Shown here: positions 5,081 through 39,407 of the stretch, piece after piece | How positions within the stretch are numbered: position 1 is the stretch's first letter | Layout of the letters: the number at the start of each line of letters is the position of its first letter | Origin: a virus | IMG/VR virus record: IMGVR_UViG_3300020058_000046 | Strand: one strand, 5' to 3' | Length of the DNA: 45,534 nt | Notes under the pieces: generated by a model | Seen by the model: only the letters and a program-made list of their open reading frames with translations | Told to the model about the DNA's origin: nothing | Databases searched by the model: none | Made by a program: the position numbers and the translations under genes

Positions 5081-5151
5081 CGGTCGACCGTGTCTGCACA
5101 GTCGTCTTTGTCGGTGCGAACGACGGGTGTGTAAGTAACTGTCGCCGTAAT

Positions 5152-5400: not shown

Positions 5401-5549
5401 TCGGTGCCTGTCGGTGCCTGCACAGTCGTCGTCAGAAACGGCACAGTCGGTCGTGACGCCGTCGCAGTCGAACGTGCCCGATTGGTCGGACCCTGTCGGC
5501 GACGACTGCACGCGCGTCGCACGTCGGCACGCACACCCTGCCGTGTCGA
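5401..5549. repeat. Phased-repeat boundary element, copy 1 (most diverged)
   Basis: Directly follows the stop of 5550..6482. Shares ctgcacagtcg..gtcagaaacggcacagtcggtcgtg..ccgtcgcagtcg.acgtgcc with the copies at 17809, 27090 and 36466. Confidence 0.8.
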
Positions 5550-8439: not shown

Positions 8440-9228
8440 TCAGTTGTCGCCCGACGGTTCAATAGTCACGTCGACCGACTGAATCCAATACCGAACGTTC
8501 TTGCGAACTATCGTCGTGTTGTGTTGTCGTTCGATTTTGTTGTCGTCGTCGCCGACTGCCGGCAGGTTCGATTGCCACATTGCGGTGTCGTACGACCCGC
8601 GACTTGTACTGTTCAGTTTCGACCGGGCACGTTCGACGATGTCGCCGGCACGACCCGGCACGACCGTCACGGTCACCGGCACGTCGATACGGGCACGGCG
8701 TTCGGTTCGGTCGGTCGACACCTGCACGTCTTCGACGTGTCGTTCGTCTTGCGGCGGTGACTGTGCGTCGTCGTAACTGTATTTGTCGACCGTGTGTTCG
8801 GTTGCGTCGTCGACGACTTCGTCGATGTCGTACGCCGTCGCATAGTTGCCTGCAAGACACCGGAACGTGACAGTCGCGTCGACCTTGTCGACCGACGCGT
8901 CAGGGTACGCAACCCATTCGGTCGTTCCGATTCGACCCGACGATTCCGACGTGTGTACGGCACCGCCGACGCCGATGTATCGGTCGGCTTCGGCGTCGGT
9001 GCCGATTACCCACCCGGACAGTCGACGGGCACGCGAATCGAACGGGTCTGACGGTCGCACCGGGTCGTTCAGTCGTTTCGTCGTCACGTCGTCGTCTGAA
9101 TAACTTGAATCGTACCCGACGACGATGAAATCGCAGTCAGGGATTACCGTACGTTTTTCGTGCCGCGTCAGTCTGTCGACCGGCACCTTAGTCAATTCGT
9201 CGCCGTCGGCGTCGGTGTGTCGCACCAT
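8440..9228 (-). CDS. MVRH-cassette gene of unknown function, 262 aa, embedded in the structural operon
   Basis: Starts ATGGTGCGACACACCGACGCCGAC at 9228, behind its own conserved promoter. The ORF-track start at 9276 just translates the promoter. Confidence 0.75.
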   Translation of the reverse strand: MVRHTDADGDELTKVPVDRLTRHEKRTVIPDCDFIVVGYDSSYSDDDVTTKRLNDPVRPSDPFDSRARRLSGWVIGTDAEADRYIGVGGAVHTSESSGRIGTTEWVAYPDASVDKVDATVTFRCLAGNYATAYDIDEVVDDATEHTVDKYSYDDAQSPPQDERHVEDVQVSTDRTERRARIDVPVTVTVVPGRAGDIVERARSKLNSTSRGSYDTAMWQSNLPAVGDDDNKIERQHNTTIVRKNVRYWIQSVDVTIEPSGDN

Positions 9229-17780: not shown

Positions 17781-17808
17781 AGTCTAAAGATTGAATCTTC
17801 GCCCGGTC

Positions 17809-17956
17809 GACCCTGTCTGCACAGTCGGCGTCACAGTCGCCGTCAGAAACGGCACAGTCGGTCGTGTGACCGTCGCAGTCGTACGTGCCGTATGGGTCGA
17901 ATCAGGAAAAGAACCGTCGCGTGCCGTACGCCGTCGACCCTGACGACCCTGCCGCG
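17809..17956. repeat. Phased-repeat boundary element, copy 2
   Basis: Begins at the TGA of 17957..18526. Nearly identical to copies 3 and 4. Contains TTCTTTTCC (minus strand) and 4 copies of GACTG[TC]G. Confidence 0.9.
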
Positions 17957-18526
17957 TCAGTCGTCGTCGTTGTCGGCAGTACCCAACCCGTCGATGTCCG
18001 TACCGGCAAGTGCCGCGTCGACGACTTCGGTGTCGAACGCGTCGACTGCGTGTGCGACGATTGGGTCGGCGACTGTACTGTCAGGGTCGACCCTGTCGAA
18101 CAGTTGCGACAGGAATTCGACCCGACGGTCGAATTGCGGTCGTGTCTGACTGTCGTACAGGTGTTCGATTGGGATTCGTGCAAGCCGACCCGACGGGTAA
18201 TCGTACGTCTTGTCGGCAGGGTCGGCGGGTATGTCTTGCGGCTTCGTCGGCACGAACACGCATTCGAATATCGTGTCGTCGGGTCGGATTGGTAACCACG
18301 GGTGAACCTTGTACGTGGTTAGGTCGAAGTCTTCGTCGTCGAAGTATTCGACCGCCGTGTCTGCACGAACGCGACTGACGTACAACGGTCGACCTTGCAC
18401 AAGGTCGATTACGATGTCGCCCGGTTGTACCTGTCGCGGGAATTGCGACAGACTGTCAGTCAGTCGGTCGTGTGCCTTGCGTTCCGATTCGTCGAACGTG
18501 TTGTCGATTGCACCGTGTTCAGACAT
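17957..18526 (-). CDS. Acidic protein of unknown function, 189 aa
   Basis: ATG at 18526 (MSEHGAID...) overlaps the stop of 18519..19094 (ATGTCTGA). The longer ORF-track version (to 19072) runs through the upstream gene in a Ser/Thr/Arg-rich frame. Confidence 0.7.
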   Translation of the reverse strand: MSEHGAIDNTFDESERKAHDRLTDSLSQFPRQVQPGDIVIDLVQGRPLYVSRVRADTAVEYFDDEDFDLTTYKVHPWLPIRPDDTIFECVFVPTKPQDIPADPADKTYDYPSGRLARIPIEHLYDSQTRPQFDRRVEFLSQLFDRVDPDSTVADPIVAHAVDAFDTEVVDAALAGTDIDGLGTADNDDD

Positions 18527-19206: not shown

Positions 19207-19842
19207 TCAGGGTGCGAAGTCGGTGACCGTCACGATTCGCCGTCGCGGGTTTCGGTTGCGCGTGAACCGTTCGTCGTGTTTCTTGTGGTGGTCGTACCTG
19301 TCGGGCACGTATTGGTCGATGAATCGGAACGCACCTTGTTTCGTCTGAAAGACGACTTCGACCGTGCCGTTGTTCACGTCGAAGTCGGCGTACGACACCG
19401 TGTCGACGTATGCGTTGTTGTCGGCACGCATATCGTCGATACAGTCACCCGCAACGGCGTCGACCACAATGACACCACGCAGGTAATCGACGATGTCGAC
19501 GACTGCACGGTTCGACAGGCACGCGTCGACGAACGCCGGCATACCCATGATATGCACGACGATATCAAGGTCGTCGGATATGGTCGACACGACACGACCG
19601 ATTTTGATTCCGTCGGTCGTCAGACAGTCGTTGTCGGTCACCCACCCGTGTTCGACCAACCGTGCCTTGCGGTCGGTGTCGACGGTTCCGGCTTCGCCGT
19701 CGACGTACCGGGCGACTGCCCGCAAGTCCTTGCGCGTTCGGTTCGTGCCCGCGTCGTCGTCGGCAAGTGCCTGCACCGCGTCGGCAAGGCTTAACGTCTG
19801 TTCGTCGGTTCGGTCGTCGTCGGCGTCGGTGTGTCGCACCAT
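19207..19842 (-). CDS. MVRH-cassette gene of unknown function, 211 aa
   Basis: ATG at 19842. The first ~30 aa (MVRHTDADDDRTDEQT..DAVQAL.DDD) are shared with 29017..29232; the rest is unrelated. Confidence 0.75.
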   Translation of the reverse strand: MVRHTDADDDRTDEQTLSLADAVQALADDDAGTNRTRKDLRAVARYVDGEAGTVDTDRKARLVEHGWVTDNDCLTTDGIKIGRVVSTISDDLDIVVHIMGMPAFVDACLSNRAVVDIVDYLRGVIVVDAVAGDCIDDMRADNNAYVDTVSYADFDVNNGTVEVVFQTKQGAFRFIDQYVPDRYDHHKKHDERFTRNRNPRRRIVTVTDFAP

Positions 19843-20567: not shown

Positions 20568-22079
20568 TTACCGTTTCGACACCGTCGACCCTGACGACCC
20601 TGACGACGACCCACGCAACGAATCGGTATATATCGCATACCGTAAACTGTCGACCGCGTGGTCGTCGGCGTCTTTCGCACCGACATCGTCTTCGGTGTAC
20701 GACAGTAATTCACTTATCAGATTTTCACATTCGGTACTGACAAGTAACCCGTACCTGTCTTCGTGGTCGGCACGCAGTCGGTGTTTCACTTCGTCGATTC
20801 CCGCGTCGATGTCCTTTTCGGCTTTGCCTGCCGGATACCCTGACGGTGGGTCGTCGATATTCGTTAGTGCCGGCTTTCGGAACTTGCGGATATCGCCCGG
20901 TTCGTGTTCGCAATAGATTCGACCCGACGGCTTACTGCCGTCACCCAACCACCTGATTGCGTCGGCGACGTGCGTGCCCGATTCGTAAAATTCGTCGACA
21001 ACGACGTACTGCCCGTACGACGACCGGGCGATTTCAAGCAAGACACGCGGGTCGGACCAACCCGCGTCGTACCCGTATATCCGGTGCGTGCCGGATATCG
21101 TCACGCGGTCGGTTGGGTTTCCGTCGTCGTCGACTGACGTGTACCCGCCGTCGTCTGTCTGCACAAGGTCGACGACGTGTGCCTGCCGACTGAACGGAAA
21201 GACTTGCCCTTCGGCACTTTCGAACGCACCGTGTAATGCCTGTTGGGATTGTTTCGACTGCCCGTGCGTTCGACGTAATCGTGCCTTGTCGTCGGCAGTC
21301 AGAAACGGATTATTTAGTGACGACGCCGTTATCAGTTTCACCGATTGCCCGATTGGATTGCCGTACGCGTCGACCCGTCGTTCTAAGATGTCGTGTGCCG
21401 GATTCAAGCCGTTGCCTGTCGTCGTCACAAGCATAACCTTCGGTTTCCCGAAGTCGAACCGTTCGGTCACCGTCTTGCGAATGCCGTGTATCTTGTCCGT
21501 GTCGTAATGCGCGAATTCGTCACACCACGCGAAGGAAAACGACCCGCCGTCGTACCTGTCCGACTTGTCTGCCGACGCAAGTATCACCGTCGAATCCGTC
21601 GCCGTCGTCAGGATACCGTCTTGTTTCGACCACGACTTGATTACCGGCGAATTCGTCGGGTCACCGTCGTACAGAAACGGGTCGACCTTTTCGGCAGGGG
21701 CACCCGGCAGTTGTTCGAACAGTACCGGGTACGTCGTCTTTTTGGCTTCGGCGTACGTCTTGCCCATTGCTAACGACCGCGTCTGTCCGAACGAATCGTC
21801 TAACGCAACCTGCCATGTGGCACGGGCACCCGTCACCGACTTGCCTGAACGAAACCCGCCGACCAACCCGACGATGTCGTAATCGCCGGAATAGACTGCC
21901 CGGAACGCGTCGACTTGCGGTTTCCAAAATGCCCATTTGACCGACAGACTGCCACCGACCGACTGTTCGACGACGCCGTCGTGTCGCAACCTGTCGACTT
22001 CGTCGTCGGCAAGGTCGTCGACGCCGTCGGGAACGACCAACTGCGTGCCGTCAGGTGCCGATATTGTCGATACAGACAT
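20568..22079 (-). CDS. terL: Terminase large subunit, 503 aa
   Basis: Walker A-like VGGFRSGKS, Walker B-like FAWCDEF, and a C-terminal nuclease-type half (...DHAVDSLRYAIY). ATG at 22079. Confidence 0.9.
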   Translation of the reverse strand: MSVSTISAPDGTQLVVPDGVDDLADDEVDRLRHDGVVEQSVGGSLSVKWAFWKPQVDAFRAVYSGDYDIVGLVGGFRSGKSVTGARATWQVALDDSFGQTRSLAMGKTYAEAKKTTYPVLFEQLPGAPAEKVDPFLYDGDPTNSPVIKSWSKQDGILTTATDSTVILASADKSDRYDGGSFSFAWCDEFAHYDTDKIHGIRKTVTERFDFGKPKVMLVTTTGNGLNPAHDILERRVDAYGNPIGQSVKLITASSLNNPFLTADDKARLRRTHGQSKQSQQALHGAFESAEGQVFPFSRQAHVVDLVQTDDGGYTSVDDDGNPTDRVTISGTHRIYGYDAGWSDPRVLLEIARSSYGQYVVVDEFYESGTHVADAIRWLGDGSKPSGRIYCEHEPGDIRKFRKPALTNIDDPPSGYPAGKAEKDIDAGIDEVKHRLRADHEDRYGLLVSTECENLISELLSYTEDDVGAKDADDHAVDSLRYAIYTDSLRGSSSGSSGSTVSKR

Positions 22080-23605: not shown

Positions 23606-23645
23606 GTGCCGTCTGTGCCCGTCTGTGCCCGTCTGTGCCCGTCAG
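23606..23645. repeat. 10-bp tandem repeat (GTGCCCGTCT) x ~3.5
   Basis: The sequence gtgccgtct gtgcccgtct gtgcccgtct gtgcccgtca lies immediately after the stop of 23642..23851. Confidence 0.9.
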
Positions 23646-23851
23646 TCGCGTTCGTCGCGTTCGTCGCGTCGAACTAAGCAACCGGAAAGACCGGAATTCG
23701 ACGCCGATTGCGGGTCACACACCCAATGCCCGGCACGACCGCATTCAGTACACCGATACTTACCTGTACCACCGCGAATCGTGATTCGTTCGTACACCGT
23801 TTCGACTTCGTGCCCGCATTCACAGACGAAGCCGACTTCGTCGTCGGTCAT
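23642..23851 (-). CDS. Zinc-ribbon protein, 69 aa
   Basis: Contains CECGH...x19...CTECG. The C-terminal RDERDERD is encoded by a 9-bp tandem repeat. Confidence 0.65.
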   Translation of the reverse strand: MTDDEVGFVCECGHEVETVYERITIRGGTGKYRCTECGRAGHWVCDPQSASNSGLSGCLVRRDERDERD

Positions 23852-23852
23852 G

Positions 23853-23987
23853 TTACCACCGACCCGACGCGACTTCGTTGCCCTTGTCGAATAGCACTTG
23901 CGCGACTTCGGCGTCGTCGGCGTCGGTGTCTTCGATTAGTTGTTCAAGTTCCGATTCGAAGTCGCCCGCCGGCGATTCCGTCGTCAT
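23853..23987 (-). CDS. Small acidic protein, 44 aa (MTTESPAGDFESELEQLIED...), below the ORF-track cutoff
   Basis: ATGA overlap with 23984..24346. Shares the MTTES start and about 37 nt of junction sequence with 28658..29020. TAA at 23853, 1 nt before the next ATG. Confidence 0.5.
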   Translation of the reverse strand: MTTESPAGDFESELEQLIEDTDADDAEVAQVLFDKGNEVASGRW

Positions 23988-24346
23988 TGCGAACCACCGT
24001 CGTCACGCGGGTCGGTCGGCAGTCGCACGTCGTCGGCGTCGATTCGCAGTCGCGTACCGCCGTTGTGTCTGTCTTCGACTGTCACCGGCGGGAAATACGC
24101 GTCGTACATACCGGCGACTGCCGCGTCGATGTCCGACGCCGACCACGATTCGGGCAATTCGACCACCGCGTCGCCGGCGATAGCAATGAATTCGTCGATG
24201 TCCTTGCCGTGTACGTTGCGGTCGAACCACCGTTGCGCGTGTGCAAGCCAATATCGGGCATGGTCACCCGCGTCGGTGTCTTCGCCGGCGGTTCCGAACC
24301 GTTCGTACCGACCTTGTCGTTCGTCGGTTGTGGTGTGTCGCACCAT
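23984..24346 (-). CDS. MVRH-cassette gene, 120 aa, ending in the DPRDDGGSQ linker
   Basis: ATG at 24346 behind the conserved promoter. The C-terminal ...DPRDDGGSQ* is identical to that of 29017..29232. Confidence 0.75.
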   Translation of the reverse strand: MVRHTTTDERQGRYERFGTAGEDTDAGDHARYWLAHAQRWFDRNVHGKDIDEFIAIAGDAVVELPESWSASDIDAAVAGMYDAYFPPVTVEDRHNGGTRLRIDADDVRLPTDPRDDGGSQ

Positions 24347-24400
24347 ACCCCTACTTGCATACCCGTGTATAAATATGTGTCGTCTTGCACCGGCAAAAGG
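24347..24400 (-). promoter_or_regulatory. Conserved promoter cassette, sub-type II
   Basis: Minus strand reads GGTGCAAGACGACAC-ATATTTATACAC-GGGTATGCAAGTAGGGGT-ATGGTGCGACACACC. The TATA is at 24368-24375. Confidence 0.8.
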
Positions 24401-24415
24401 GGAAACCCGACGCCG

Positions 24416-24649
24416 TCAGTCGACGATGTCCGACCGCTTTTCGTTTAGCAACGATATCAGTTGCTTTCGAACCTGTCTGTCTTCGTGGTCGGCAAGCCAC
24501 AATTCGGCTTCGATGTATTCAGTCACCCGTTCCGGTTTCCTGATTCCTTTGATTACTGCCCGTACGGTTGCGTCGTTCTTTTCGGCAAGTACGTACGCGG
24601 CTTCGGTCGGATATTCCGACTTCGATGTCTGTGCCTGTTTCCGTGTCAT
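24416..24649 (-). CDS. Small Lys/Glu-rich protein, 77 aa, unknown function
   Basis: ATG at 24649 (MTRKQAQTSK...), 2 nt after the upstream stop. The longer ORF-track form overlaps the upstream gene. Confidence 0.55.
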   Translation of the reverse strand: MTRKQAQTSKSEYPTEAAYVLAEKNDATVRAVIKGIRKPERVTEYIEAELWLADHEDRQVRKQLISLLNEKRSDIVD

Positions 24650-24651
24650 GG

Positions 24652-24828
24652 TCACCGTTTGGATACGAACGACCCGCCGTCGTACCTGTCTTCGTCTGTG
24701 TACGACCCACACACCGGGCATTCGTACATCGTCTTCGGACCACCGGGCGACGGCACTTCGGTTCGGTGCAAGCCGACGTGCCCGCAATCGACGCATTCGA
24801 CATCGTACGTATCGCCGGCGTCACTCAT
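24652..24828 (-). CDS. Zinc-ribbon protein, 58 aa
   Basis: ATG at 24828 inside the conserved GGTGGTTCGAATGAGTGA linker. Contains CVDCGH...x19...CPVCG. Confidence 0.65.
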   Translation of the reverse strand: MSDAGDTYDVECVDCGHVGLHRTEVPSPGGPKTMYECPVCGSYTDEDRYDGGSFVSKR

Positions 24829-25081
24829 TCGAACCACCCGACAGGAATTCCGACACGTCGTCAGGGTGTGGCAGTACCCTCTTGCCGTCGGTCGTCTGTA
24901 CCACGACGCCGGCGACTGTTTCGCCGTCGTGCCGACTGTCGTTGTGTTCGTGTATCACGTCGGCAGATTCCGACCAATCGACCACCTTGTGCGTACCGCA
25001 TTGCGGGCACGCAACAGGTACGTGGTCCGGTGTGTCGTCGGCGTCGGCGGTACTGTCGTCGGCAGGTGTGTCGCCGGTCAT
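24821..25081 (-). CDS. Small acidic Cys-containing protein, 86 aa, ending in the GGSNE linker
   Basis: ATG at 25081 with a TTTTAA box 28 nt upstream. Contains CPQCG. The C-terminal EFLSGGSNE* parallels ECLPGGSNE* of 28658..29020. Confidence 0.7.
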   Translation of the reverse strand: MTGDTPADDSTADADDTPDHVPVACPQCGTHKVVDWSESADVIHEHNDSRHDGETVAGVVVQTTDGKRVLPHPDDVSEFLSGGSNE

Positions 25082-25125
25082 GCCTGCCGGTGACGACGTA
25101 CGCGGTGGTTAAAACCGTGTCGGCG
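25082..25125 (-). promoter_or_regulatory. Promoter
   Basis: Minus strand has CCGACACGG-TTTTAAC, then about 27 nt, then ATG. GACTTTTCTGTTC (T-tract) lies just upstream, after the 25159 stop. Confidence 0.6.
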
Positions 25126-25158
25126 ACTGCCGGACAGGTGAACAGAAAAGTCGCGTCG

Positions 25159-25947
25159 TCAGTCGTCGATTCGACCGTCGTGGTCGACCGTCACGTCGAA
25201 GTCGGAATCGACCGTGCGTTCGACGCCGGCTTCGATTCGGTCTTGCACGGTGTCGACGCGGTCGTCGGTGACGCCGTCGACGGTCACCGTGAACGTGTGA
25301 CCGGCAGGGAATTCGACGCGTGCCGTCTTGCCGATTTCTTGATTCCGTCGACCCTGCGTTTCGACGGTGCGTTCGTGAACCGCCGTCACTTCGACGTGCC
25401 TGTCGCGTCGACTGTCGTACCCACGAATCCGGTCACCATTCCATTCGACCGATACGTCTTGCAGGGTCATGGTTTTCAGATTGCCCGAACGGTTCGAACG
25501 GTACTGCACCGTCACGTCGACGCCGTCTTGCACGGCACCGTCGACGGGTGCCCGCCGACCCATGACCACGCAGGTTAGGTCGACCGCGTCGGCGACTTGC
25601 CTGAATTCGTAATCGTCACCCTGCCGGTACAGATTGCCGGCGTCGGTGTACGCGTACTTCGTGCCGTCGACGTACCAACTGTAAACGCCGACGCCGTCGT
25701 CGGTGTCGACCTTGTCGGCGTCGCGGGTCGACTTCGTCGGCGTAACTGCCCGAACCGTCTTGCGCGTGTCGCGTCGGGTCGTGTACGTGAATTCGATTGC
25801 CTTGCGGTTGTGGTCACAGTCGACGACATCGTCAGACACGGTAAGACCCGTGAATCGGTCGTGAAATAGGTCGTCGGCTTCGATGTCGACCGTTCGTTCG
25901 TGGTATTCGTCGGCGATTCGGTCGTCGGTTGCGGTGTGTCGCACCAT
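25159..25947 (-). CDS. MVRH-cassette gene of unknown function, 262 aa
   Basis: ATG at 25947 (MVRHTATDDRIADEY...). The ORF-track N-terminal extension translates the promoter and the upstream repeat. Confidence 0.75.
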   Translation of the reverse strand: MVRHTATDDRIADEYHERTVDIEADDLFHDRFTGLTVSDDVVDCDHNRKAIEFTYTTRRDTRKTVRAVTPTKSTRDADKVDTDDGVGVYSWYVDGTKYAYTDAGNLYRQGDDYEFRQVADAVDLTCVVMGRRAPVDGAVQDGVDVTVQYRSNRSGNLKTMTLQDVSVEWNGDRIRGYDSRRDRHVEVTAVHERTVETQGRRNQEIGKTARVEFPAGHTFTVTVDGVTDDRVDTVQDRIEAGVERTVDSDFDVTVDHDGRIDD

Positions 25948-26002
25948 ACCCCTACTTGCATACCCGTGTATAAATACGTGTCGTCTTGCACCGGCGGGCA
26001 AG
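25948..26002 (-). promoter_or_regulatory. Conserved promoter cassette, sub-type II
   Basis: Minus strand reads GGTGCAAGACGACAC-GTATTTATACAC-GGGTATGCAAGTAGGGGT-ATG. Confidence 0.8.
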
Positions 26003-26074
26003 CCGGTGTCGACCGTGTCGTGTCGACGCAACTGCAAGGGTCGAAGTCGGCAAGAAGGGTCGGCAGGGTGGTCG
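26003..26074. repeat. ~72-bp intergenic repeat, copy 1 (paralog of 28156..28230)
   Basis: The string ggtgtcgaccgtgtcgtgtcgacg..actgcaagggtcga..cggcaagaagggtcggcagggtggtcgtc is shared. It follows a stop codon and precedes a promoter in both places. Confidence 0.85.
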
Positions 26075-26350
26075 TCAGACGCGTTCGATTCGCGGGTGAC
26101 CGTACACGTCGTCAGGGTCGACGACCGTGCCGTCGACGTACTGACGTGCATACCCGGCACAGTCGGCACCCGTGCCCGGTTCGTTCGGGTGACTGTCTAA
26201 CCACGACTGCGTGACGTGTATGACGGTTTCGTCGTGTGGCACGATATAGTGCATGAATACGTCGACTTCGATGTAATAGAAGCCGTGTGGGTGCCCCTGC
26301 ACCTGCCACCGGATTGTGAACGGGTCGGTGTCGATGTCGGCGTCAGTCAT
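26075..26350 (-). CDS. Small protein of unknown function, 91 aa
   Basis: ATG at 26350 in the GGTGGTTCGCAATGAC linker (MTDADIDTDPFTIRW...). Confidence 0.65.
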   Translation of the reverse strand: MTDADIDTDPFTIRWQVQGHPHGFYYIEVDVFMHYIVPHDETVIHVTQSWLDSHPNEPGTGADCAGYARQYVDGTVVDPDDVYGHPRIERV

Positions 26351-26799
26351 TGCGAACCACCGTCGGCGTCGTCGTCGTCGTCGTCGTCGCGTCGTTCGGG
26401 CACTTCGACGTACAGTCGAACGCAACCGGCACCGTCACGGAATCGAACCGTTCGGTCGGTCGATTCGTCGGCGTACCCGGCAAGCCTGACAAGTGACATC
26501 GGCGTCGCGTGTGGGTCGTCTTGCCCGAACGAATCGTATTCGACTTTCACTTCGTCGGCACGGTCGAAGTCTATCATAGACAACACGTCGAAGCCGACCG
26601 CGTCGGCACACAGTTTTGCGGCAAGACCGACCGGCGTTAGAACCTTCGACGATTCCGGGTCGTGGTCGTCGGCGTCGTATTCGGCTTCGACCGCGTCGAC
26701 GACCGCGTCGAACGCGTCAGACGACGGGTCGTCGGCGTACGCAGTCGCAGTCTGTTCCGGCGTCGGTTCGGCGTCGTCGGCGTCGGTGTGTCGCACCAT
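26347..26799 (-). CDS. MVRH-cassette gene, 150 aa, ending in the ...DGGSQ linker
   Basis: ATG at 26799 (MVRHTDADDAEPTPEQ...). The C-terminus is DDDDDDDADGGSQ*. Confidence 0.75.
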   Translation of the reverse strand: MVRHTDADDAEPTPEQTATAYADDPSSDAFDAVVDAVEAEYDADDHDPESSKVLTPVGLAAKLCADAVGFDVLSMIDFDRADEVKVEYDSFGQDDPHATPMSLVRLAGYADESTDRTVRFRDGAGCVRLYVEVPERRDDDDDDDADGGSQ

Positions 26800-26842
26800 A
26801 CCCGTACTTGCATACCCGTGTATAAGTATCTGTCGGTGGTTT
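26800..26842 (-). promoter_or_regulatory. Conserved promoter cassette, sub-type II, with the upstream half replaced by the long repeat
   Basis: Minus strand reads CCGACAGAT-ACTTATACAC-GGGTATGCAAGTACGGGT-ATG. Confidence 0.7.
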
Positions 26843-27089
26843 ACTATCAGGTACAGTACCGATACAGTCATATACGCAGTTTCGATTCTAAGCCGTCTTA
26901 GCGGTCGCACAGTCGGCTTCAATTTTCGCCGACCCATACCACCTATTCTTTTTTCAAACGGATTCGGCAAGTTCGGACCCTGTACTTACTGATATCGGGC
27001 GTTTCGGCAAAATACACGGGTATTTAAAGGCACCCGCCGATATCACCCTGTATCATAATACCGAAACAAAACGCGTCGGTTCCGGTGTC
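26843..27089. repeat. Long intergenic repeat, copy B (paralog of 5152..5400)
   Basis: See copy A. Contains GCGTTTTGTTT, CCTTTAAATACCC, and a conserved stem GTCGG-N12-CCGAC whose loop differs between the copies. Confidence 0.85.
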
Positions 27090-27237
27090 GACCCTGTCTG
27101 CACAGTCGGCGTCACAGTCGCCGTCAGAAACGGCACAGTCGGTCGTGTGACCGTCGCAGTCGTACGTGCCCGATTGGTCGCAGTCACAGACGAACCGTCG
27201 CGTGCCGTACACCGTCGACCCTGACGACCCTGCCGCG
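27090..27237. repeat. Phased-repeat boundary element, copy 3
   Basis: Begins at the TGA of 27238..28041. Minus strand has GACTGCGAC-N15-GACTGCGAC-N12-GACTGTGCC-N12-GACTGTGAC-N3-GACTGTGCA. Confidence 0.9.
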
Positions 27238-28041
27238 TCAGTCGCCGTCGTCTTCGTCGCCGTCTTCGTCGGTCGGTGGTTCGGTCACCTGTACGTGCGT
27301 GATATCGACTTCGGTGACACCGTCGTCGTCGACCGTCACGTCGTGGTCACCGTCGACATTCACGTCGACACCGTCTGATATCTTCTTGTACGTGTCTATC
27401 AGGTTCGCAAGGTGGCTTTCCTTGCGTTCGATTGCCTTGTCACCGAACGATACGAACCGTTCACCCGTCGGTTCGAAGTCGCCCGAACGTACGTCGCACG
27501 GCGTCGGGTTACCGTCAGACATATCGAAGCCGGTGCAGACTTCGGGCAACGGTGACGATTCCGACGCCGTGTACGTGTTGCCACACTTCGGGCAACTGTA
27601 CTTGTCGACCCGTTCGGCTTCGGGTATCTTGTCGACTGCCCGAACCAACCGGGTGAATTCCCACCCGATTGATTGCTTTAGCATATCTGCCATGTCGTCG
27701 ACCGACAGTAAGTCGCCGTCGTCTGTCTGCACGACCGCGTCGAAGACTTCGGCGTCGTCGTCGTTCATTCGTTCGGAATACAACAGGTGTCGGGCGTTTT
27801 GGTTTTGCCACCCTTCTAAGCCACCGACGCCGTGCCCGTTGTGTTTCCTGCAATGCCCGGTCGTACGGTCGGTGCCCCAACCTGCGGCTTGCAGACAAAA
27901 CGCGTAATCCCACCGTTTGTTTCCGTTCACGTCTGTCGCGTCTGTCTTTTCACGACCGCATATCGGATATCCGTTTTCCGGGTGTATCGGTACGCCGTCG
28001 TCGTTCGTCGGTGCGTCAGGGTGTACGTTCGACCATGCCAT
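27238..28041 (-). CDS. HGGxSTG-like Zn-binding protein; possible small terminase subunit, 267 aa
   Basis: ATG at 28041. The N-terminus CGREK..x..CLQAAGWGTDRTTGHCRKHNGHGVGG..WQNQNARHLLYS resembles the C..C..GRC..HGG...G..GN.NA.KHG.YS block seen in some phage TerS-annotated proteins. Middle CPKCG. Acidic tail. Confidence 0.35.
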   Translation of the reverse strand: MAWSNVHPDAPTNDDGVPIHPENGYPICGREKTDATDVNGNKRWDYAFCLQAAGWGTDRTTGHCRKHNGHGVGGLEGWQNQNARHLLYSERMNDDDAEVFDAVVQTDDGDLLSVDDMADMLKQSIGWEFTRLVRAVDKIPEAERVDKYSCPKCGNTYTASESSPLPEVCTGFDMSDGNPTPCDVRSGDFEPTGERFVSFGDKAIERKESHLANLIDTYKKISDGVDVNVDGDHDVTVDDDGVTEVDITHVQVTEPPTDEDGDEDDGD

Positions 28042-28155
28042 ATTACGCACCTGCCGTCTGTGTGTTTTCAGTCATGTTTACGTGTTCGGGCGATTGCCCG
28101 TCGTGTTACTGGTTGGTTCGGCAGGTGCAGGTAAAGTCGTGTCGGCGTCAGACGG

Positions 28156-28230
28156 CAGGTGTCGACCGTGTCGTGTCGACGTGACTGCAAGGGTCGACAC
28201 CGGCAAGAAGGGTCGGCAGGGTGGTCGTCG
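28156..28230. repeat. ~72-bp intergenic repeat, copy 2
   Basis: Paralog of 26003..26074. Follows the stop of 28237..28665. Confidence 0.85.
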
Positions 28231-28236
28231 GTCGGT

Positions 28237-28665
28237 TCAGTCGTCGCAGTCGTGAATCTTCTTGCGGGCACGGGAAACAGACGTGCCGACGGTGCCGCGT
28301 TCGACACCGCGTTCACGGGCACGTTCACCGCCGGTCTTGCCGTCGACTTCGACTGCGAAGTAATCACGTTCTTGCGTTTCGGTGACGTGACTGCCGGCAA
28401 GGTCGTCGAAGTCGTCGAAGGTGCCGACGTACGACTGCGACGTTATTTTTCGGTCGAAGATGTCGAAGCCGTCAGGGAATTCACGCGGCTTTTCCGACCC
28501 GTCGTCGTACGTTTCGGTACCCATGCACGACGGGCAAGCCATAACGTCGGTGCGTTCGAAGTCGTCGGCGTCGTCGAAGACACTAACGAATTCTTGCCTG
28601 CACCGGCGACAGGAAAGCAAGAATGCAAGTCGTGCCCGACTGCCGTGTTCGGCGGTATCACTCAT
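28237..28665 (-). CDS. Zinc-ribbon plus sigma-70 region-4-like HTH regulator, 142 aa
   Basis: ATG at 28665 in the GGSNE linker. The N-terminus has CRRC...CPSC. The C-terminal LAGSHVTETQERDYFAVEVDGKTGGERARERGVERGTVGTSVSRARKKI fits the LT..Q..V......G.s..EIA...gv..gTV.s...RAr.Ki pattern. Confidence 0.6.
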   Translation of the reverse strand: MSDTAEHGSRARLAFLLSCRRCRQEFVSVFDDADDFERTDVMACPSCMGTETYDDGSEKPREFPDGFDIFDRKITSQSYVGTFDDFDDLAGSHVTETQERDYFAVEVDGKTGGERARERGVERGTVGTSVSRARKKIHDCDD

Positions 28666-29020
28666 TCGAACCACCCGGCAGGCATTCAGACGTGTCGTCG
28701 ACCGCGTCGGCGACGGTTCGGCGAATGGTCGACAGGTACGGCGTCTTCGTGAATATCGCAACGGCGTCGAACCTGTCCGACAGACGGTCGACTGCGTACT
28801 GCCGGTCGTCGACTGCCCATGCAAGTGCCGGGTACACGGCACGCGACAAGTCGTCGGCGTCGAATAGGTCGGTCGACGCGTCGAACGCGACTGCGACGAA
28901 TCGGCAGTCGTCACGAAGCCGCGACTGCACGATGTCTTGCGTTTCCTGCCCGAATGCCGACCACACGGTTTCGTCGTCGGCGTCGCGGATTGCGTCGGCA
29001 AGGTCCGATTCCGTCGTCAT
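28658..29020 (-). CDS. Acidic protein, 120 aa, with an MTTES start and a GGSNE end
   Basis: ATGA overlap at 29017-29020. Both termini lie in conserved linker sequences. Confidence 0.7.
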   Translation of the reverse strand: MTTESDLADAIRDADDETVWSAFGQETQDIVQSRLRDDCRFVAVAFDASTDLFDADDLSRAVYPALAWAVDDRQYAVDRLSDRFDAVAIFTKTPYLSTIRRTVADAVDDTSECLPGGSNE

Positions 29021-29232
29021 TGCGAACCACCGTCGTCACGCGGGTCGTCGAAGCCGTCGACGTACGTGACTGCAAGGTCGATAATCTGGTTCGGGTCGTC
29101 GATTGAACCGACTTCGTCGACGATGAATTCGGGCACGTCGTCGTCGCCGGTTAGTGCCTGCATTGCGTCGAACGCGTGTGCTTTCGTCTGTTCGTCGGTT
29201 CCGTCGTCGTCGGCGTCGGTGTGTCGCACCAT
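29017..29232 (-). CDS. MVRH-cassette gene, 71 aa, ending in DPRDDGGSQ
   Basis: ATG at 29232 behind the conserved promoter. Confidence 0.75.
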   Translation of the reverse strand: MVRHTDADDDGTDEQTKAHAFDAMQALTGDDDVPEFIVDEVGSIDDPNQIIDLAVTYVDGFDDPRDDGGSQ

Positions 29233-29285
29233 ACCCGTACTTGCATACCCGTGTATAAAAATGTGTCGTCTTGTACCGGCAGGTG
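29233..29285 (-). promoter_or_regulatory. Conserved promoter cassette, sub-type II
   Basis: Minus strand reads GGTACAAGACGACAC-ATTTTTATACAC-GGGTATGCAAGTACGGGT-ATG. Confidence 0.8.
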
Positions 29286-29286
29286 T

Positions 29287-29634
29287 CTATGCAGTTGCGA
29301 ACAGGATAATCGCAAGGTTCGACCCGGTGATTAGGGCACCGACTGTCGTTAGTGACGCCGGTATCGCCGTTCGATACTTCGTGTTCGCGGTGAAATAGAA
29401 GCCGACTGCGACTGCAAGAACCACCGCTTTCATGCCGACCATTAGCAAGGGTCCGAAGTCGACGATTGTACTGCCGACAGGGTGCGTTTCGGTCACACCG
29501 GGCAGGGATAACCCGACGACTGTTGTGATTACGTCGCCGACGACGAAGGTTAGTGCCGACGCAACCCAAAGCCACCCGTCGGTGTCTGTACTGCGTTCGT
29601 CTAACGCGTCGATTGGATTGGTCACAGTCTGCAC
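29287..29634 (-). CDS. Membrane protein (3-4 TM helices), 115 aa
   Basis: GTG start at 29634. Hydrophobic helices WLWVASALTFVVGDVITTVVGL, LLMVGMKAVVLAVAVGFYF and VGALITGSNLAIILFA. Confidence 0.6.
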   Translation of the reverse strand: MQTVTNPIDALDERSTDTDGWLWVASALTFVVGDVITTVVGLSLPGVTETHPVGSTIVDFGPLLMVGMKAVVLAVAVGFYFTANTKYRTAIPASLTTVGALITGSNLAIILFATA

Positions 29635-29767
29635 GTCGACCGTGTCGAAGATAAGGTCTTGTTGTTCGTCGCCGTTTCCCGTGACGTGTCACGTCGTTCG
29701 ACAGGTACAAACGCCGGCGTTTGTTCGACGATTCGCACGACGACACTTTGTATGCTTGCCGTATGTA

Positions 29768-29935
29768 TCACGTAATCGACCGTACGTCGTTGTCGGCTTC
29801 GCGCAACCGTCGGATACACCGGGCACACAACGGCTTTCGTTTCGGTCGTCGGTCGTCGTCGAAAAAGACTGTGTGAACGGTACTGCGTACGTCGTCGCGT
29901 TCGCACCGAACGCAGGGTCGTGATTCGGTGACCAT
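29768..29935 (-). CDS. Zinc-ribbon protein, 55 aa, below the ORF-track cutoff
   Basis: Hand translation gives MVTESRPCVRCERDDVRSTVHTVFFDDDRRPKRKPLCARCIRRLREADNDVRSIT*. It has CxxC...CxxC like the many other small Zn-ribbon genes here. Confidence 0.4.
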   Translation of the reverse strand: MVTESRPCVRCERDDVRSTVHTVFFDDDRRPKRKPLCARCIRRLREADNDVRSIT

Positions 29936-34716: not shown

Positions 34717-34774
34717 GGTTGTTCGGTGGGTCCGAATTGCGGGTCGGATACCCGCCGACCGCGTGGTCGGAAAG

Positions 34775-34857
34775 TGGCACCTGCCGGATTCGAACCGGCG
34801 AAGTCCTGCGACGCACGGTCTTAAGCCGTGTGCAGTCGACCACTTTGCTAAGGTGCC
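34775..34857 (-). tRNA. tRNA-Leu (anticodon UAA), class II, 83 nt, no encoded CCA
   Basis: Acceptor GGCACCT/AGGTGCC. D stem GCA/TGC with GG in the loop. Anticodon stem CACGG/CCGTG with loop CTTAAGA. 14-nt variable arm. T arm GCCGG-TTCGAAT-CCGGC. Discriminator A. Confidence 0.85.
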
Positions 34858-36607: not shown

Positions 36608-38305
36608 TCAGTCGTCGGTGTACTTGTCGTGCAGGGTCGTGAATGACCCGTTTCGGGAATCACGGCACCCACACGGGCACCGCAAGGTTAGTTCGCGGTC
36701 GGTCGTCGTGTTGTATCGACTGATTTTGTAGGTGTGAACGCGAAGGGTCGGTCGAAGTCGGTCACCACACCACGGGCACACCGCAAGTTCGTGCAAGACT
36801 TCGGTGCCCTTGTCGGTGATATCCCACCGGGCATTAGGGTCGTCGAAGTCGGCGTCGTCATTGCCGTCGACGCGTTCAATCAAGCCGACTTCGCGTGCCT
36901 TGCGAATGACCGTTCGAAAGTGTGCGTCGCCGTGTGCGAAGCCGTCGGGTCGACGGAAACCCGTGCCCGGTGACCCATGACCCTGCACCTTGCGAACACC
37001 TTGCTTACCCGTCGGGCACGGTGCGATATCGTCAGGGTCGACATCGTCGTCGTACGTGTTCACGGTGAACATACCGCCGTCGCCCGACGCGTCTTCGCGT
37101 GCCGACGCAATGAATTCCTGCCACCACGCGACATCGGTAAGCAACGACCGAACCTTCGTCGGCGTCACCGACGCGTATTCGTCGAACACGTCGGCGACAT
37201 CGTCGGGCACGTCGGCGTCGTCGACGGACCACACGCGGTCGTCTTTGCAGTCGATACACACCGGGTCGTCGTGTGCCGGGTGGTCGTGTTCGGCACCGGC
37301 GTCGTGCGTGTCACCGCAACGGGCACAGTCGAACGTGTCGATGTACCTGTCGGCGGTCTTTTTGCCGTCGTCGTTGTACTGTGCCTTGTTGTAAGCCGCG
37401 TCGCGGATTCGTTCGACGTTTCGGTTCACGGACAGTCGGCGAAACGTCTGTGCGACTTCGGTTCGGTTGTTGTCCGACGCGTCGACAAGGTCGGAATACG
37501 AAGCCGCGTCGAATTCGTCGTCGAAGTCGTGTGGTATCGTCGCACGATACCACAAGGGTCGTTCGTAATCAGGGTCGTCGTATGACGGCAAGCCGTCGTC
37601 GACATCGTCGCCCGCCGTGCCTGCACGCAATGCGATAGTTGCGTCGAAGGGGCAGTCGCCGTCGTCGCCGTCGCAGGTGTATCGCAGTCGAATGATTCCG
37701 TCGTCGTCGACACGGGTGCGTTCGCGGTTCCGGTGACCGTCGTGAACCGGGCACGTCGGCGGTGCGTGTGACAACGATTCACCGTCGGCGTCGTCGGAAT
37801 ACTGTTCGACGACCTTGTGAACGACGGTGCCGTCTTCGACGACCGTTCGAATCGACCCGTCGTGCCGAATCTTGATGTCGTACTGTTCCGGTTCGGCGTC
37901 GCGCAAGAAGTGTTCCGTGTCGGCGTCGGAGTGTGCGTCGACTTTGGCTTCGACCGGGTCGGTGTCACCGCCGTCGGTCACCGCGTCGGCGACTGCCGTT
38001 TCGAACGCGTCGACGGTGTCGCCGAATCCGCGTTCGGCGTCGGTCGGTTCGCGGTCGTCGGCGTTCAGGTGGTCGTCGGCGTCGGCGGTGTCGTCGCGGT
38101 CGACGCCGTACGGATTGCGCGACTTTAGTTCGGCGATTGCGACTTCGGCGTTCGCGGTAAGGACAGGTTCGGCGTATTCGCCGTCGGGCAGGTTCGCGGC
38201 AGTCTGTGCGACGCGGTCGATGTACTGAATCAGTTGGTCGGTCGACATCGTCGTCGGGTCGATGTCGGCGGGCGATTCGTCGTCGGCGTCGGTGTGTCGC
38301 ACCAT
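36608..38305 (-). CDS. MVRH-cassette gene: large Zn-finger / winged-helix-like protein, 565 aa, candidate replication or regulatory factor
   Basis: ATG at 38305 (an in-frame ATG also sits 6 nt upstream). Cys clusters CARCG..CIDC and CPWCG..CPCGC. FRTVIRKAREVGLIERV resembles a wHTH recognition helix. Confidence 0.75.
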   Translation of the reverse strand: MVRHTDADDESPADIDPTTMSTDQLIQYIDRVAQTAANLPDGEYAEPVLTANAEVAIAELKSRNPYGVDRDDTADADDHLNADDREPTDAERGFGDTVDAFETAVADAVTDGGDTDPVEAKVDAHSDADTEHFLRDAEPEQYDIKIRHDGSIRTVVEDGTVVHKVVEQYSDDADGESLSHAPPTCPVHDGHRNRERTRVDDDGIIRLRYTCDGDDGDCPFDATIALRAGTAGDDVDDGLPSYDDPDYERPLWYRATIPHDFDDEFDAASYSDLVDASDNNRTEVAQTFRRLSVNRNVERIRDAAYNKAQYNDDGKKTADRYIDTFDCARCGDTHDAGAEHDHPAHDDPVCIDCKDDRVWSVDDADVPDDVADVFDEYASVTPTKVRSLLTDVAWWQEFIASAREDASGDGGMFTVNTYDDDVDPDDIAPCPTGKQGVRKVQGHGSPGTGFRRPDGFAHGDAHFRTVIRKAREVGLIERVDGNDDADFDDPNARWDITDKGTEVLHELAVCPWCGDRLRPTLRVHTYKISRYNTTTDRELTLRCPCGCRDSRNGSFTTLHDKYTDD

Positions 38306-38355: not shown

Positions 38356-38365
38356 GTCGGTGAAT

Positions 38366-38405
38366 GCCGACACGTTTTTACCTGCCGTCGGCGTACCCTG
38401 CACCG
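38366..38405 (+). promoter_or_regulatory. Divergent promoter of the plus-strand TFB-like operon
   Basis: Plus strand has GCCGACACG-TTTTTAC (38375-38380), then 26 nt, then ATG(38406). Confidence 0.6.
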
Positions 38406-39407
38406 ATGTCAGGTGCAAAAACCGACCCGCCGACCCTTCGCCGTCTTGCCGATTCCGTCGGCTTCGACGACGGTGATATCGACTTCGCCGAACAGTTAGA
38501 CGACCAACTGCCGAACGACGGTGGTTTCGCCGACCGTGACGCCGGTATCGTGTACGCCGTCGCGCGTATCAATAACGTGCCGATTCGACCCGGCGAAGTC
38601 GCCGACGCGTCGCAGTACGACGATGTCGACGCCGATACTGTCGTGAACGACACGCGACGTATCGCCGACACTATGCCCTTCGACTTACACGTCGACGACC
38701 CGTCGGCGTTCGTAAAACGATTCGTCGACGACGTATCCGATGTCTGCCGGGTGCCCGACGGTTTCCGGCAGACTGCCCTTCGTCTGTGTGCCGACGCAAC
38801 GAACGCCGGCTTGCAGTCAGGTAAGTCGCGTTCCGGTTTTGCCGCGTCGGTCGTGTACGCGGCTTCGGTCGTCACCGACGCCGATATCGGGCAATACGAA
38901 GTCGCCGACATCGTCGACGTGTCACCCGTAACAATCCGAAACCAGTACCGACCGATTATCGACTGCACCGACGAACACGATTGGACAATGCACGACGCCG
39001 ACGACTTGCCCGAACTTGTCGACGCAATCGCCGACGACATCGACCGCGTACCTGACGACGTGCGTGACGACGCGGTCGGCGTCGCCGAATCAGTCGTCGC
39101 CGACGAACCGGAATTCGTCACGTCGACGAAGGTGACCGGAACCGCCGGCGGTGTCTTCTATGTCGTTGCTGAACGACACCGTTTCGACGTTTCCATGCAA
39201 GAAGTCGCCGATACCGCCGGCGTCAGTAAGCATACAGTCGTTGCCCGTGTTCACGACGTGCGTGATTACTGCCGTCGCGTTCAGTACCGAACGATGAATT
39301 ACAACCGTCTGAAAGAACTTGCCGCGTCGCACGACCTTGATGTCGGCACGACGCCGGCGAAGTCAGACATCGTCGACGCGTTAGTTCGCAACAAAATCGA
39401 CGCATAA
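38406..39407 (+). CDS. TFB/TFIIB-like protein (two cyclin repeats, no Zn-ribbon or B-reader) with an extra HTH and a C-terminal HeH/SAP-like motif, 333 aa
   Basis: LQSGKSRSGFAASVVYAASVVTDADIGQYEVADIVDVSPVTIRNQYRPI matches the TFB second-repeat signature (sGrsP..lAAAalY.As......tQ.evA....VtevTIRNrY.e). The first repeat has RDAGIVYAVARINNVPIRPGEVA. There are no Cys pairs at the N-terminus. An ATG at 38364 is an alternative start. Confidence 0.7.
   Translation: MSGAKTDPPTLRRLADSVGFDDGDIDFAEQLDDQLPNDGGFADRDAGIVYAVARINNVPIRPGEVADASQYDDVDADTVVNDTRRIADTMPFDLHVDDPSAFVKRFVDDVSDVCRVPDGFRQTALRLCADATNAGLQSGKSRSGFAASVVYAASVVTDADIGQYEVADIVDVSPVTIRNQYRPIIDCTDEHDWTMHDADDLPELVDAIADDIDRVPDDVRDDAVGVAESVVADEPEFVTSTKVTGTAGGVFYVVAERHRFDVSMQEVADTAGVSKHTVVARVHDVRDYCRRVQYRTMNYNRLKELAASHDLDVGTTPAKSDIVDALVRNKIDA

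Follow-up and report, generated by a model that had tools for sequence, protein, structure and literature searches.

Why should the same short stop/start sequence be found between pairs of genes that are otherwise unrelated? The question is raised by a group of small operons (positions 23642-29232) in a 45,534-nucleotide (nt) stretch of viral DNA, IMG/VR record IMGVR_UViG_3300020058_000046. The whole stretch, called the window below, is a near-complete genome of a tailed haloarchaeal virus, according to a domain scan of its large open reading frames (ORFs). Two sequences, linker 1 (GACGGTGGTTCGCAATGAC) and linker 2 (GGGTGGTTCGAATGAGTGA), recur at gene boundaries in these operons. The reading favored here, with a probability of about 0.72, is that the linkers are termination-reinitiation junctions acting as portable 5′ expression adapters for the internal genes of leaderless operons.

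Repeated Stop/Start Junctions

All linker and operon genes lie on the minus strand, in the same orientation, upstream of the terminase gene. The operons are designated A to D, and their linkers are as follows (amino acid ends of the upstream and downstream proteins are separated by a slash).

29016-29035, minus strand: linker 1 at A1/A2; GGTGGTTCG as putative Shine-Dalgarno (SD) sequence, spacer CA, ATGA overlap; ..DGGSQ-stop / MTTES; predicted duplex -12.6 kcal/mol
26346-26365, minus strand: linker 1 at B1/B2; ..DADGGSQ-stop / MTDAD
23983-24002, minus strand: linker 1 at D1/D2; ..DPRDDGGSQ-stop / MTTES
28658-28677, minus strand: linker 2 at A2/A3; GGGTGGTTCG, spacer A, 8-nt ATGAGTGA overlap; ..GGSNE-stop / MSD; predicted duplex -13.3 kcal/mol
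24821-24840, minus strand: linker 2 at C2/C3; exact match over the 20-nt core
29006-29047, minus strand: 42-nt patch, comprising seven codons of an A1′-family 3′ end (DPRDDGGSQ-stop), the linker and the first five codons of the next gene (MTTES)
23973-24014, minus strand: second copy of the 42-nt patch, at D1/D2

Linker 1 occurs exactly at 23983-24001, 26346-26364 and 29016-29034, and linker 2 at 24821-24839 and 28658-28676 (all minus strand). In shuffled controls, matches to linker 1 with up to 3 mismatches averaged 0.08, and 0 of 100 shuffles reached three of them; for linker 2, 0.01 would be expected. Exact extension yields a 20-nt core common to all three linker-1 copies, while the 20-nt core of linker 2 (24821-24840 = 28658-28677) lies within a patch of about 50 nt with 40 of 50 positions identical (80%). 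The junctions D1/D2 and A1/A2 are identical over 42 nt (23973-24014 = 29006-29047). The stop and the next start overlap by 4 nt (ATGA) at 23984-23987, 26347-26350 and 29017-29020 in linker 1, and by 8 nt (ATGAGTGA) at 24821-24828 and 28658-28665 in linker 2.

Most of what the initial annotation had described for this region is borne out. The three exact copies of linker 1 and two of linker 2 compare with practically none expected by chance; the 37-nt identity that it reported (23978-24014/29011-29047) is real and slightly longer; and the encoded ends (..DGGSQ-stop then MT(TES), ..GGSNE-stop then MSD) are as it gave them. The same holds for the layout of the mini-operons, in which a promoter cassette is followed by a variable acidic ORF, a linker, another ORF, and then a linker or a zinc-ribbon ORF. 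The coding sequence between the linkers had been called mostly unrelated, and in an all-against-all BLASTP comparison the matches are indeed confined to the shared ends; hhalign aligned D1 with B1 only in the region from the shared MVRHT on, with a probability of 39%, and gave no alignment of A2 with B2.

Several other readings of these sequences were considered and dropped. The 9-nt direct repeats beside the linker-1 core (TGACGACGG and GACGCCGAC) could resemble target-site duplications, but the coding strand has 7 and 61 occurrences of them. The GGTTCGAAT of linker 2, taken as a tRNA T-loop, has no complementary stem after it. Other GGTGGTTCG sites (4888, 24223, 27275, 32112, 40573 and 40891) are located within genes or on the strand opposite to them and are not junctions, and inspection of the junctions revealed no slippery site for a frameshift or fusion.

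A Predicted Re-Initiation Signal

The 16S rRNA 3′ tail used for pairing (..CUGGAUCACCUCCU / ..UGGAUCACC..) is general knowledge and not host-derived. With this conserved 3′ end, the GGTGGTTCG in each linker is predicted to pair over 9-10 bp, G-U pairs being allowed. Duplexes were calculated between the 22 nt upstream of each linked start and CUGGAUCACCUCCU, with energies below -8.4 kcal/mol defining a strong SD. With this generic 16S tail, the values are -12.6 kcal/mol for linker 1 and -13.3 kcal/mol for linker 2. On the coding strand as a whole, the mean is -5.6 and the 1st percentile -12.7 kcal/mol, which places the linkers at about the 1st percentile. The duplex ends 1-2 nt before the ATG, at which the stop/start overlap is 4 or 8 nt long. 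When the window and its relatives are taken together, a strong SD is present at 31 of 59 tightly spaced junctions, compared with 16 of 121 other starts. A sixth junction of the window reads GGTGATTCG-TGA-ATG. Thus, the linked pairs display the features of coupled pairs that were looked for, namely co-directional stop/start overlap and an intragenic SD with strong predicted pairing.

Such junctions are familiar from haloarchaea. In Haloferax volcanii, SD sequences are inactive in 5′ untranslated regions (5′ UTRs) and are enriched 3-7 nt before distal operon genes, and overlaps of 4 and 8 nt are standard classes (PMC3986360). Of 14 overlapping pairs tested (9 from H. volcanii and 5 from E. coli), 13 were strictly coupled via termination-reinitiation, and reinitiation dropped by about 20-80% when the SD was removed from seven H. 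volcanii pairs (PMC6728339). The translational coupling postulated in the initial annotation is therefore well supported as a prediction, both by sequence features (SD, overlaps, leaderless first genes, and tails present only where genes are coupled) and by the Haloferax literature, and the linkers probably are coupling junctions of the termination-reinitiation type.

Conservation of the linkers acts on nucleotides rather than on peptides. In the related contig L008, GCGGTGGTTCGCCTATGAGTG (GGTGGTTCGCCTATGAGTG) is read in another frame (..VAVVRL-stop/MSV). The start sequence ATGAGTGAT (ATGAGTGAY) of a 72-amino-acid (aa) gene overlaps the preceding gene by 4 nt in L008 and by 8 nt in the window, L005, L006 and L009. 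Since ATGAGTGA holds a TGA in both non-zero frames, it may end an upstream ORF arriving in either of them, and ORFs arriving in either are seen in the family. By their sequence, the GGS(Q/NE)-stop tails are the in-frame reading of a putative SD.

Tails and Heads Separable from Gene Bodies

Relatives were gathered by scans of IMG/VR and Joint Genome Institute (JGI) metagenomes based on the large terminase (TerL) and on gene A4, which yielded a handful of contigs, and by protein searches, which added more. The operon genes to be compared are these.

29017-29232, minus strand: A1, 71 aa, first ORF of operon A
28658-29020, minus strand: A2, 120 aa, flanked by both linkers; tail TSECLPGGSNE regarded as adapter-derived
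28237-28665, minus strand: A3, 142 aa, with CxxC zinc-ribbon motifs
26347-26799, minus strand: B1, 150 aa, first ORF of operon B
26075-26350, minus strand: B2, 91 aa, behind linker 1
25159-25947, minus strand: C1, 262 aa, first ORF of operon C; orthologues in L002 and L007
24821-25081, minus strand: C2, 86 aa, DUF8149 zinc-ribbon (precomputed Pfam hit), ending ..GGSNE-stop
24652-24828, minus strand: C3, 58-aa zinc-ribbon, starting MSD
24416-24649, minus strand: C4, 77 aa, last gene of operon C, kept in relatives
23984-24346, minus strand: D1, 120 aa, first ORF of operon D, with the extra tail PTDPRDDGGSQ
23853-23987, minus strand: D2, 44 aa, behind linker 1
23642-23851, minus strand: D3, 69-aa zinc-ribbon ORF behind a GGTGGTAAC-ATG junction

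Comparison with related genomes, proposed together with the first description of the linkers, did reveal the same or derived linkers next to different cargo. Linker 2 or its variants connect a 503-aa protein (..GEGGSNE-stop) to a 157-aa MSD protein in L005 and L009, a 96-aa membrane protein (..GGGRNE-stop) to a 67-aa protein in L009, and a C2 orthologue (..EGDSNE-stop) to a 72-aa protein in L006, L010 and L028; in L006 and L028 the EGDSNE-stop end carries GGTGATTCGAATGAGTGA and is followed by the 72-aa MSD gene. Because the 67- and 72-aa proteins behind these linker-2 variants are homologous, linker 2 looks like the native initiation region of their gene family. No gene of this family was found in the window, where C3 and A3 keep the linker-2 region and MSD; C3 orthologues start with MPELF or MPDDD.

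In three gene families, the GGS..-stop tail is present only together with a coupled downstream gene. In L002, D1 has a monocistronic orthologue whose end (..RLSVPY-stop) falls exactly where D1 continues with ..PTDPRDDGGSQ-stop. The B1 orthologue of the same contig shows 70% identity over residues 1-101, but its C-terminus beyond them differs and the linker is missing; the two orthologues are adjacent, and neither bears a tail. A2 in strain L018 is 98% identical to A2 of the window and ends ..DAVDD-stop with no coupled gene behind it. The A2 homologues P0001 and P0002 (the latter 55% identical) have other ends, ..NDGSDD-stop is also found among the ends of A2 homologues, and one homologue begins with MSD, not MTTES. 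As for A3, its homologues (65-71% identical) start with MVRH(T/H) behind a full promoter cassette and are convergent to terL; the homology of the bodies begins at about codon 11, and the window A3 has instead MSD behind linker 2.

The source of one tail can be traced. In the A1′ family, monocistronic genes end with ..DPRED-stop or ..AAEN-stop, and those with a closely following gene end with ..DPRDDGGSDE-stop, ..DPRDDEGGA-stop or ..TADGGSQ-stop. The A1′-family 3′ end in L031 is GACGACCCGCGTGACGACGGGGGGTCGGACGAATGA, and its first 20 nt are the upstream part of the 42-nt patch in the window; L031 has GGGGGG where the patch has GGTGGT, and the window lacks any GGGGG. Because of this shared 20-nt stretch, the ..DPRDDGGSQ-stop tail on A1 and D1 is, judging by sequence, a relic of the A1′ family. 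Altogether, the gene bodies can be separated from their tails and heads.

A Strain That Differs between the Conserved Ends

The closest view of the process is given by a single strain pair. L018 is a metagenomic contig of 1877 bp (JGI 3300054977), and the parts of the window that matter for it are listed below.

29036-29191, minus strand: A1 body, replaced in L018 by an unrelated 291-nt body (115-aa A1′ protein)
28247-28693, minus strand: A2 tail, linker 2 and A3 block, 447 nt, present in the window and missing from L018; its ends share CGACGAC
28158-28238, minus strand: post-operon repeat of about 82-85 nt, immediately behind the stop codon of A3 and bounding the L018 indel on the right
26005-26086, minus strand: second copy of this repeat, immediately behind the stop codon of B2

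L018 is 98.5% identical to the window over 29192-29789, a span that takes in the upstream gene, the promoter and the codons for MVRHTDADD and thus reaches codon 9 of A1. Window positions 29036-29191 are replaced by an unrelated body of 291 nt, after which identity (99.1%) resumes exactly from CGACGGTGGTTCGCAATGA through A2 (28694-29035). Positions 28247-28693, comprising the A2 tail TSECLPGGSNE, linker 2 and A3, are absent, and L018 returns to 98% identity in the post-operon repeat and A4. The missing block starts exactly where the patch resembling the C2 tail starts, and its ends share the 7-nt CGACGAC.

Hence the modular exchange supposed in the initial annotation stands as far as boundaries are concerned: the promoter cassette, linker 1 and the edge of the linker-2 patch delimit the replacement and the loss, and we are confident that the linkers mark module boundaries. 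Its second half, in which the linkers serve as homology patches, is less well supported. The data would fit equally well if a gene simply took its adapter along because it would not be translated without one; that the linkers are the actual crossover sites is possible but somewhat doubtful. The replacement between two repeats fits repeats acting as recombination substrates, and the end at a microhomology fits illegitimate recombination followed by selection.

The two copies of the post-operon repeat in the window are 90% identical, and in L018 the repeat follows A2. It folds no better than shuffled sequences (z = -1.55 and -1.59 for the copies) and may be a transcript-end or recombination element.

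Promoter Cassettes and Probably Leaderless First Genes

All four operons are headed by a promoter cassette that consists of TTTATA, 21 nt, and then ATGGTGCGACACACC, which encodes MVRHT.

29203-29280, minus strand: cassette of operon A, a repeat family (D6), found by alignment and an exact 15-mer; left boundary of the body replaced in L018
26770-26847, minus strand: cassette of operon B, repeat family, by alignment and exact 15-mer
25918-25995, minus strand: cassette of operon C, repeat family, by alignment and exact 15-mer
24317-24394, minus strand: cassette of operon D, repeat family, by alignment and exact 15-mer

The TTTATA-21 nt-ATG layout fits a leaderless haloarchaeal promoter and recurs in the relatives L003, L022 and L028; the mRNAs of the cassette genes probably start at or near the start codon. 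The ATGGTGCGACACACC 15-mer has seven exact copies in the window (9214-9228, 19828-19842, 24332-24346, 25933-25947, 26785-26799, 29218-29232 and 38291-38305), all on the minus strand and each behind a similar TATA-containing cassette, so that MVRHT cassettes head genes genome-wide, beyond the linker region. The promoter/ATGGTGCGA start is kept in all related contigs, with differing upstream promoter sequence, and this conservation of ATGGTGCGA suggests that the nucleotides transcribed and translated first in leaderless mRNAs are constrained.

Proposed Mechanism and Alternatives

According to the favored reading, the mRNA would start at or near the cassette ATG, and the first protein would begin with MVRHT. 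Ribosomes would finish the first ORF, whose last five or six codons carry GGTGGTTCG as an extended SD and whose stop overlaps the next ATG (ATGA in linker 1, ATGAGTGA in linker 2); the terminating ribosome, held by pairing with 16S rRNA, could then restart on the next gene. As haloarchaea use no SD for de novo initiation, an internal gene would be translated only behind such a junction, and a moving gene would have to carry an adapter or land on one. This need would place the same junction between unrelated genes and set the mosaic boundaries at junctions and at the promoter cassette. The former upstream codons (..DPRDDGGSQ-stop, ..SE(C/F)L(P/S)GGSNE-stop) and the N-terminal codons (MTTES, MSD) would travel with the junction. 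The sequences directly show the anatomy of the junctions, the separability of tails and bodies, and boundaries both between strains and within the family; coupling and leaderless transcription are inferred from them, as would be any part that the 20-42-nt identities play as recombination substrates.

Some observations weigh against this picture. The 16S tail used for the duplex energies is a generic one and not that of the host, and coupling is itself a prediction. L018 is one short contig that an assembler might have joined at repeats; however, a 20-nt repeat is below usual k-mer sizes and the flanks of L018 differ from the window by 1-2%, both of which count against such a join. The indel ends at the CGACGAC microhomology and not in a linker, which points to illegitimate recombination plus selection. 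Moreover, the exact 18-mer GGTGATTCGAATGAGTGA is present at junctions of two unrelated bacterial-phage contigs (L025 288-305 and L026 882-899; 51% and 37% GC, non-halophilic and with no GAG depletion) that read ..GDSNE-stop/MSE... Because of this occurrence, part of the linker similarity can be convergent; generic GG-x-x-stop tails (..GG-x-DE-stop) and GACGA-ATGA recur at unrelated junctions across the family as well. Finally, linker 1 proper was found only in this virus and the close strain: the sole results of exact scans were, in IMG/VR, a high-GC phage in which the in-frame match is due to chance and a chance match in a metagenome-assembled genome of Gammaproteobacteria among GTDB genomes. 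Exact scans of IMG/VR with the promoter-core 20-mer and the full linker-2 19-mer gave no match.

If the similarity were convergent throughout, each junction would have reached the same optimal re-initiation sequence independently, under an odd base composition and with no shared history. The recurrence of GG-x-x-stop and ..GACGA-ATGA between unrelated genes family-wide and the 18-mer of the L006 type at ..GDSNE-stop/MSE junctions of the two non-halophilic phage contigs agree with this. Nevertheless, junctions of the same genome combine the same SD with different spacers (GGTGGTAAC-ATG, GGTGATTCGTGA-ATG and GGGTGACACA-ATG), identity reaches 42 nt, or about 50 nt at 80%, into the flanking codons, and the upstream half of the linker-1 patch is recognizable as an A1′-family 3′ end, so that pure convergence is very unlikely. 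Shared history without exchange is the opposite case: the mini-operons may be old duplicated pairs that diverged everywhere except at the selected junction. This is unlikely too, even though the conserved core is exactly the constrained part (SD, spacer, ATGA), the first genes all share the promoter and MVRHT, and the first 31 codons that A1 shares with the gene at 19207-19842 prove that duplication within the genome occurs. Divergence cannot yield a strain that is 98-99% identical and differs by a whole gene body between conserved ends. Furthermore, the first genes (71, 150 and 120 aa) and the second genes (120, 91 and 44 aa) differ in length and have no profile similarity, D1 and B1 each have a tail-less orthologue of their own, side by side in L002, homologues of A3 and A2 have other ends, and the 42-nt identity takes in synonymous and spacer positions.

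The cassettes and linkers could also be dedicated sites at which a recombinase of the virus or host inserts and excises genes, as in integrons or shufflons. The cassette-like build with conserved ends and variable insides, the L018 replacement bounded by conserved ends and the direct orientation of the repeats would suit such a system. On the other hand, a scan of the large ORFs, with incomplete coverage of the small ones, detected no recombinase or integrase domain, inspection of the linkers revealed no evident inverted repeat or stem-loop, the post-operon repeat folds no better than shuffles (z = -1.6), and one endpoint of the indel is a plain 7-nt microhomology. Of the explanations considered, dedicated sites appear the least probable.

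An extension of the termination-reinitiation reading can be put forward only tentatively, and we think it rather improbable in full. It supposes a plug-and-play system for accessory genes with two adapters, the MVRHT leaderless cassette and the frame-tolerant ATGAGTGA/ATGA linker, in which short-homology recombination between copies within and between genomes would drive swapping, and some first ORFs (such as the chimeric A1) would be mainly leaders for ribosome delivery. If true, it would be a translational counterpart of integron cassettes and of the promoter-early stem-loop (PeSL) cassettes discussed below, the first in archaeal viruses. Should only the termination-reinitiation reading itself hold, the re-initiation-only rule would already have an evolutionary consequence, as genes would move only with, or onto, a working junction; the junctions would be standard connectors that leave short "foreign" tails and heads on proteins, and the sharp mosaic boundaries in archaeal virus genomes would be explained without a special recombination system. 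Annotators could recognize adapter-derived residues, and the leaderless promoter/start cassette and the 20-nt coupling linker would be natural parts for building haloarchaeal operons.

Cargo Genes and Genome Context

The suggestion that the cargo comprises anti-defence or host-takeover genes found no support in Pfam, PHROGs and fold searches. Pfam and PHROGs assigned no function to the cargo except for DUF8149 in C2 and a weak, sub-threshold zinc-ribbon/sigma-70 region-4-like signal in the C-terminal part of A3. The AlphaFold (AF2) model of A2, of moderate quality (predicted local distance difference test, pLDDT, 70), leaves the linker-encoded tail (residues 113-120) disordered and outside the fold, and has no fold match in PDB or BFVD; the A3 model (pLDDT 38) is unusable. 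In A1, the N-terminal 31 codons (29140-29232) are a diverged copy of the start (19750-19842) of the 211-aa gene 19207-19842, with 74% aa identity, and the last 9 codons are an A1′-family relic. A1 is therefore a chimera of three sources and may have no function as a protein of its own.

Among the genes found by the domain scan are those for TerL (20568-22079) and the portal (12867-15815); an XkdF-type protease, the major capsid protein and a TFIIB-like protein are also encoded. The nearest isolates, BJ1, Humcor1, HRTV-28 and HSTV-1 (Halorubrum/Haloarcula viruses), have a TerL identity of only about 38%. Megablast of the region against GenBank phages gave no match, and the A4-based scan of GTDB genomes gave no provirus. 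Two other JGI samples contain contigs, of 5.1 kb and 44 kb, that match the linker region of the window with 100% identity, so the linker arrangement is not an assembly artefact.

The TFIIB/TFB-like protein (38364-39407, plus strand; Pfam TFIIB repeat, E = 2e-15) is encoded divergently from one MVRHT promoter cassette and is a candidate recogniser of the repeated virus promoters. A long repeat of about 360-400 bp (5127-5488 and 26818-27180, 87% identity, with a partial third copy at 17806-17970, 93% over 166 nt) has a relatively high AT content, apparently lacks genes and matched nothing in Rfam; it may possibly be an origin, a promoter or an RNA. It does contain the GGTGGTATG noted in the initial annotation, which is not a gene junction there. 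The sole match of the Rfam search was a tRNA, a tRNA-Leu (anticodon UAA) at 34774-34857 on the minus strand.

The composition of the genome is also unusual. GAG/CTC is nearly missing from both strands of the window (22 observed, about 1605 expected); GATC, CTAG, AGCT, CGAG, GGAGG and GGGGG do not occur, and GGCC occurs 4 times. Many of the remaining GAGs lie in ATGAGT(G) start contexts, both linker-2 copies among them. The avoidance of GAG/CTC is common to the relatives L004, L008, L009, L010, L011, L014, L022, L028 and L031 (for example, 9 against 746 expected in L009 and 1 against 201 in L031). The tRNA-Leu of the virus may offset a bias in codon usage that results from avoiding CTC and other motifs. 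On a more distant contig with an A2 homologue (L017), a DpdA-like protein of the 7-deazaguanine DNA modification family (1753-2949) hints at DNA modification in neighbouring virus lineages. Tetramer avoidance is known for haloviruses (PMC7911831), and no report of an equally strong trinucleotide purge was found in the literature.

Comparison with Known Systems

The coupled gene pairs of Haloferax volcanii (Huber et al. 2019, PMC6728339; Kramer et al. 2014, PMC3986360) have the same co-directional 4-nt (ATGA) and 8-nt overlaps, an intragenic SD likewise within a few nt of the distal start, first genes of the leaderless type, and the use of SD for re-initiation. The present case differs in that one junction with its flanking codons is reused between unrelated pairs, at mosaic boundaries, and in its putative signal, a 9-nt G-U-tolerant GGTGGTTCG rather than GGAGGUGA, in a genome without GGAGG or GGGGG.

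The haloarchaeal tailed virus HF2 (PMC8707807) similarly has multiple promoter-bearing repeats before transcription units. Its repeats are intergenic (58 and 29 bp), whereas the cassette described here enters the ORF and fixes its first five codons (MVRHT); nothing equivalent to the stop/start linkers has been described for HF2. For lambdoid phages, Susskind and Botstein in 1978, and later comparisons, reportedly proposed short conserved border sequences as sites of homologous exchange. This idea has largely been replaced by illegitimate recombination plus selection. Unlike those boundary sequences, the conserved sequence here has an identifiable function of its own, which would suffice to keep a linker at the borders.

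The closest analogue of the linkers, although they are not members of the class, is the PeSL cassette of T4-type phages (Arbiol et al. 2010, PMC2839356; PMC4122927). In both, repeated expression signals flank small variable ORFs with no assigned function, and where very close relatives differ by an insertion, deletion or replacement, the difference stops at these signals, here in one strain pair. In the window, seven ATGGTGCGACACACC copies and three plus two linker copies flank mostly orphan ORFs, and the near-identical L018 differs between the cassettes, from promoter/MVRHTDADD to linker 1 and, with the indel, to the post-operon repeat. PeSLs are transcriptional signals (a sigma-70 promoter plus a terminator hairpin), intergenic, and belong to bacterial viruses. 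In contrast, the linkers are predicted to be translational (SD plus stop/start overlap), lie inside coding sequence, have no stem-loop, and give residues to both proteins. PeSL cassettes are recombination substrates in T4-type phages (PMC2839356), and recombination between them leads to mini-circles or deletions. A combination of recombinase and structured sites, as in integrons, was not seen among the large ORFs scanned, which did not cover every small ORF. Taken together, coupled gene pairs and shuffling bounded by regulatory cassettes are known; the reuse of a junction between unrelated genes sets the present case apart.

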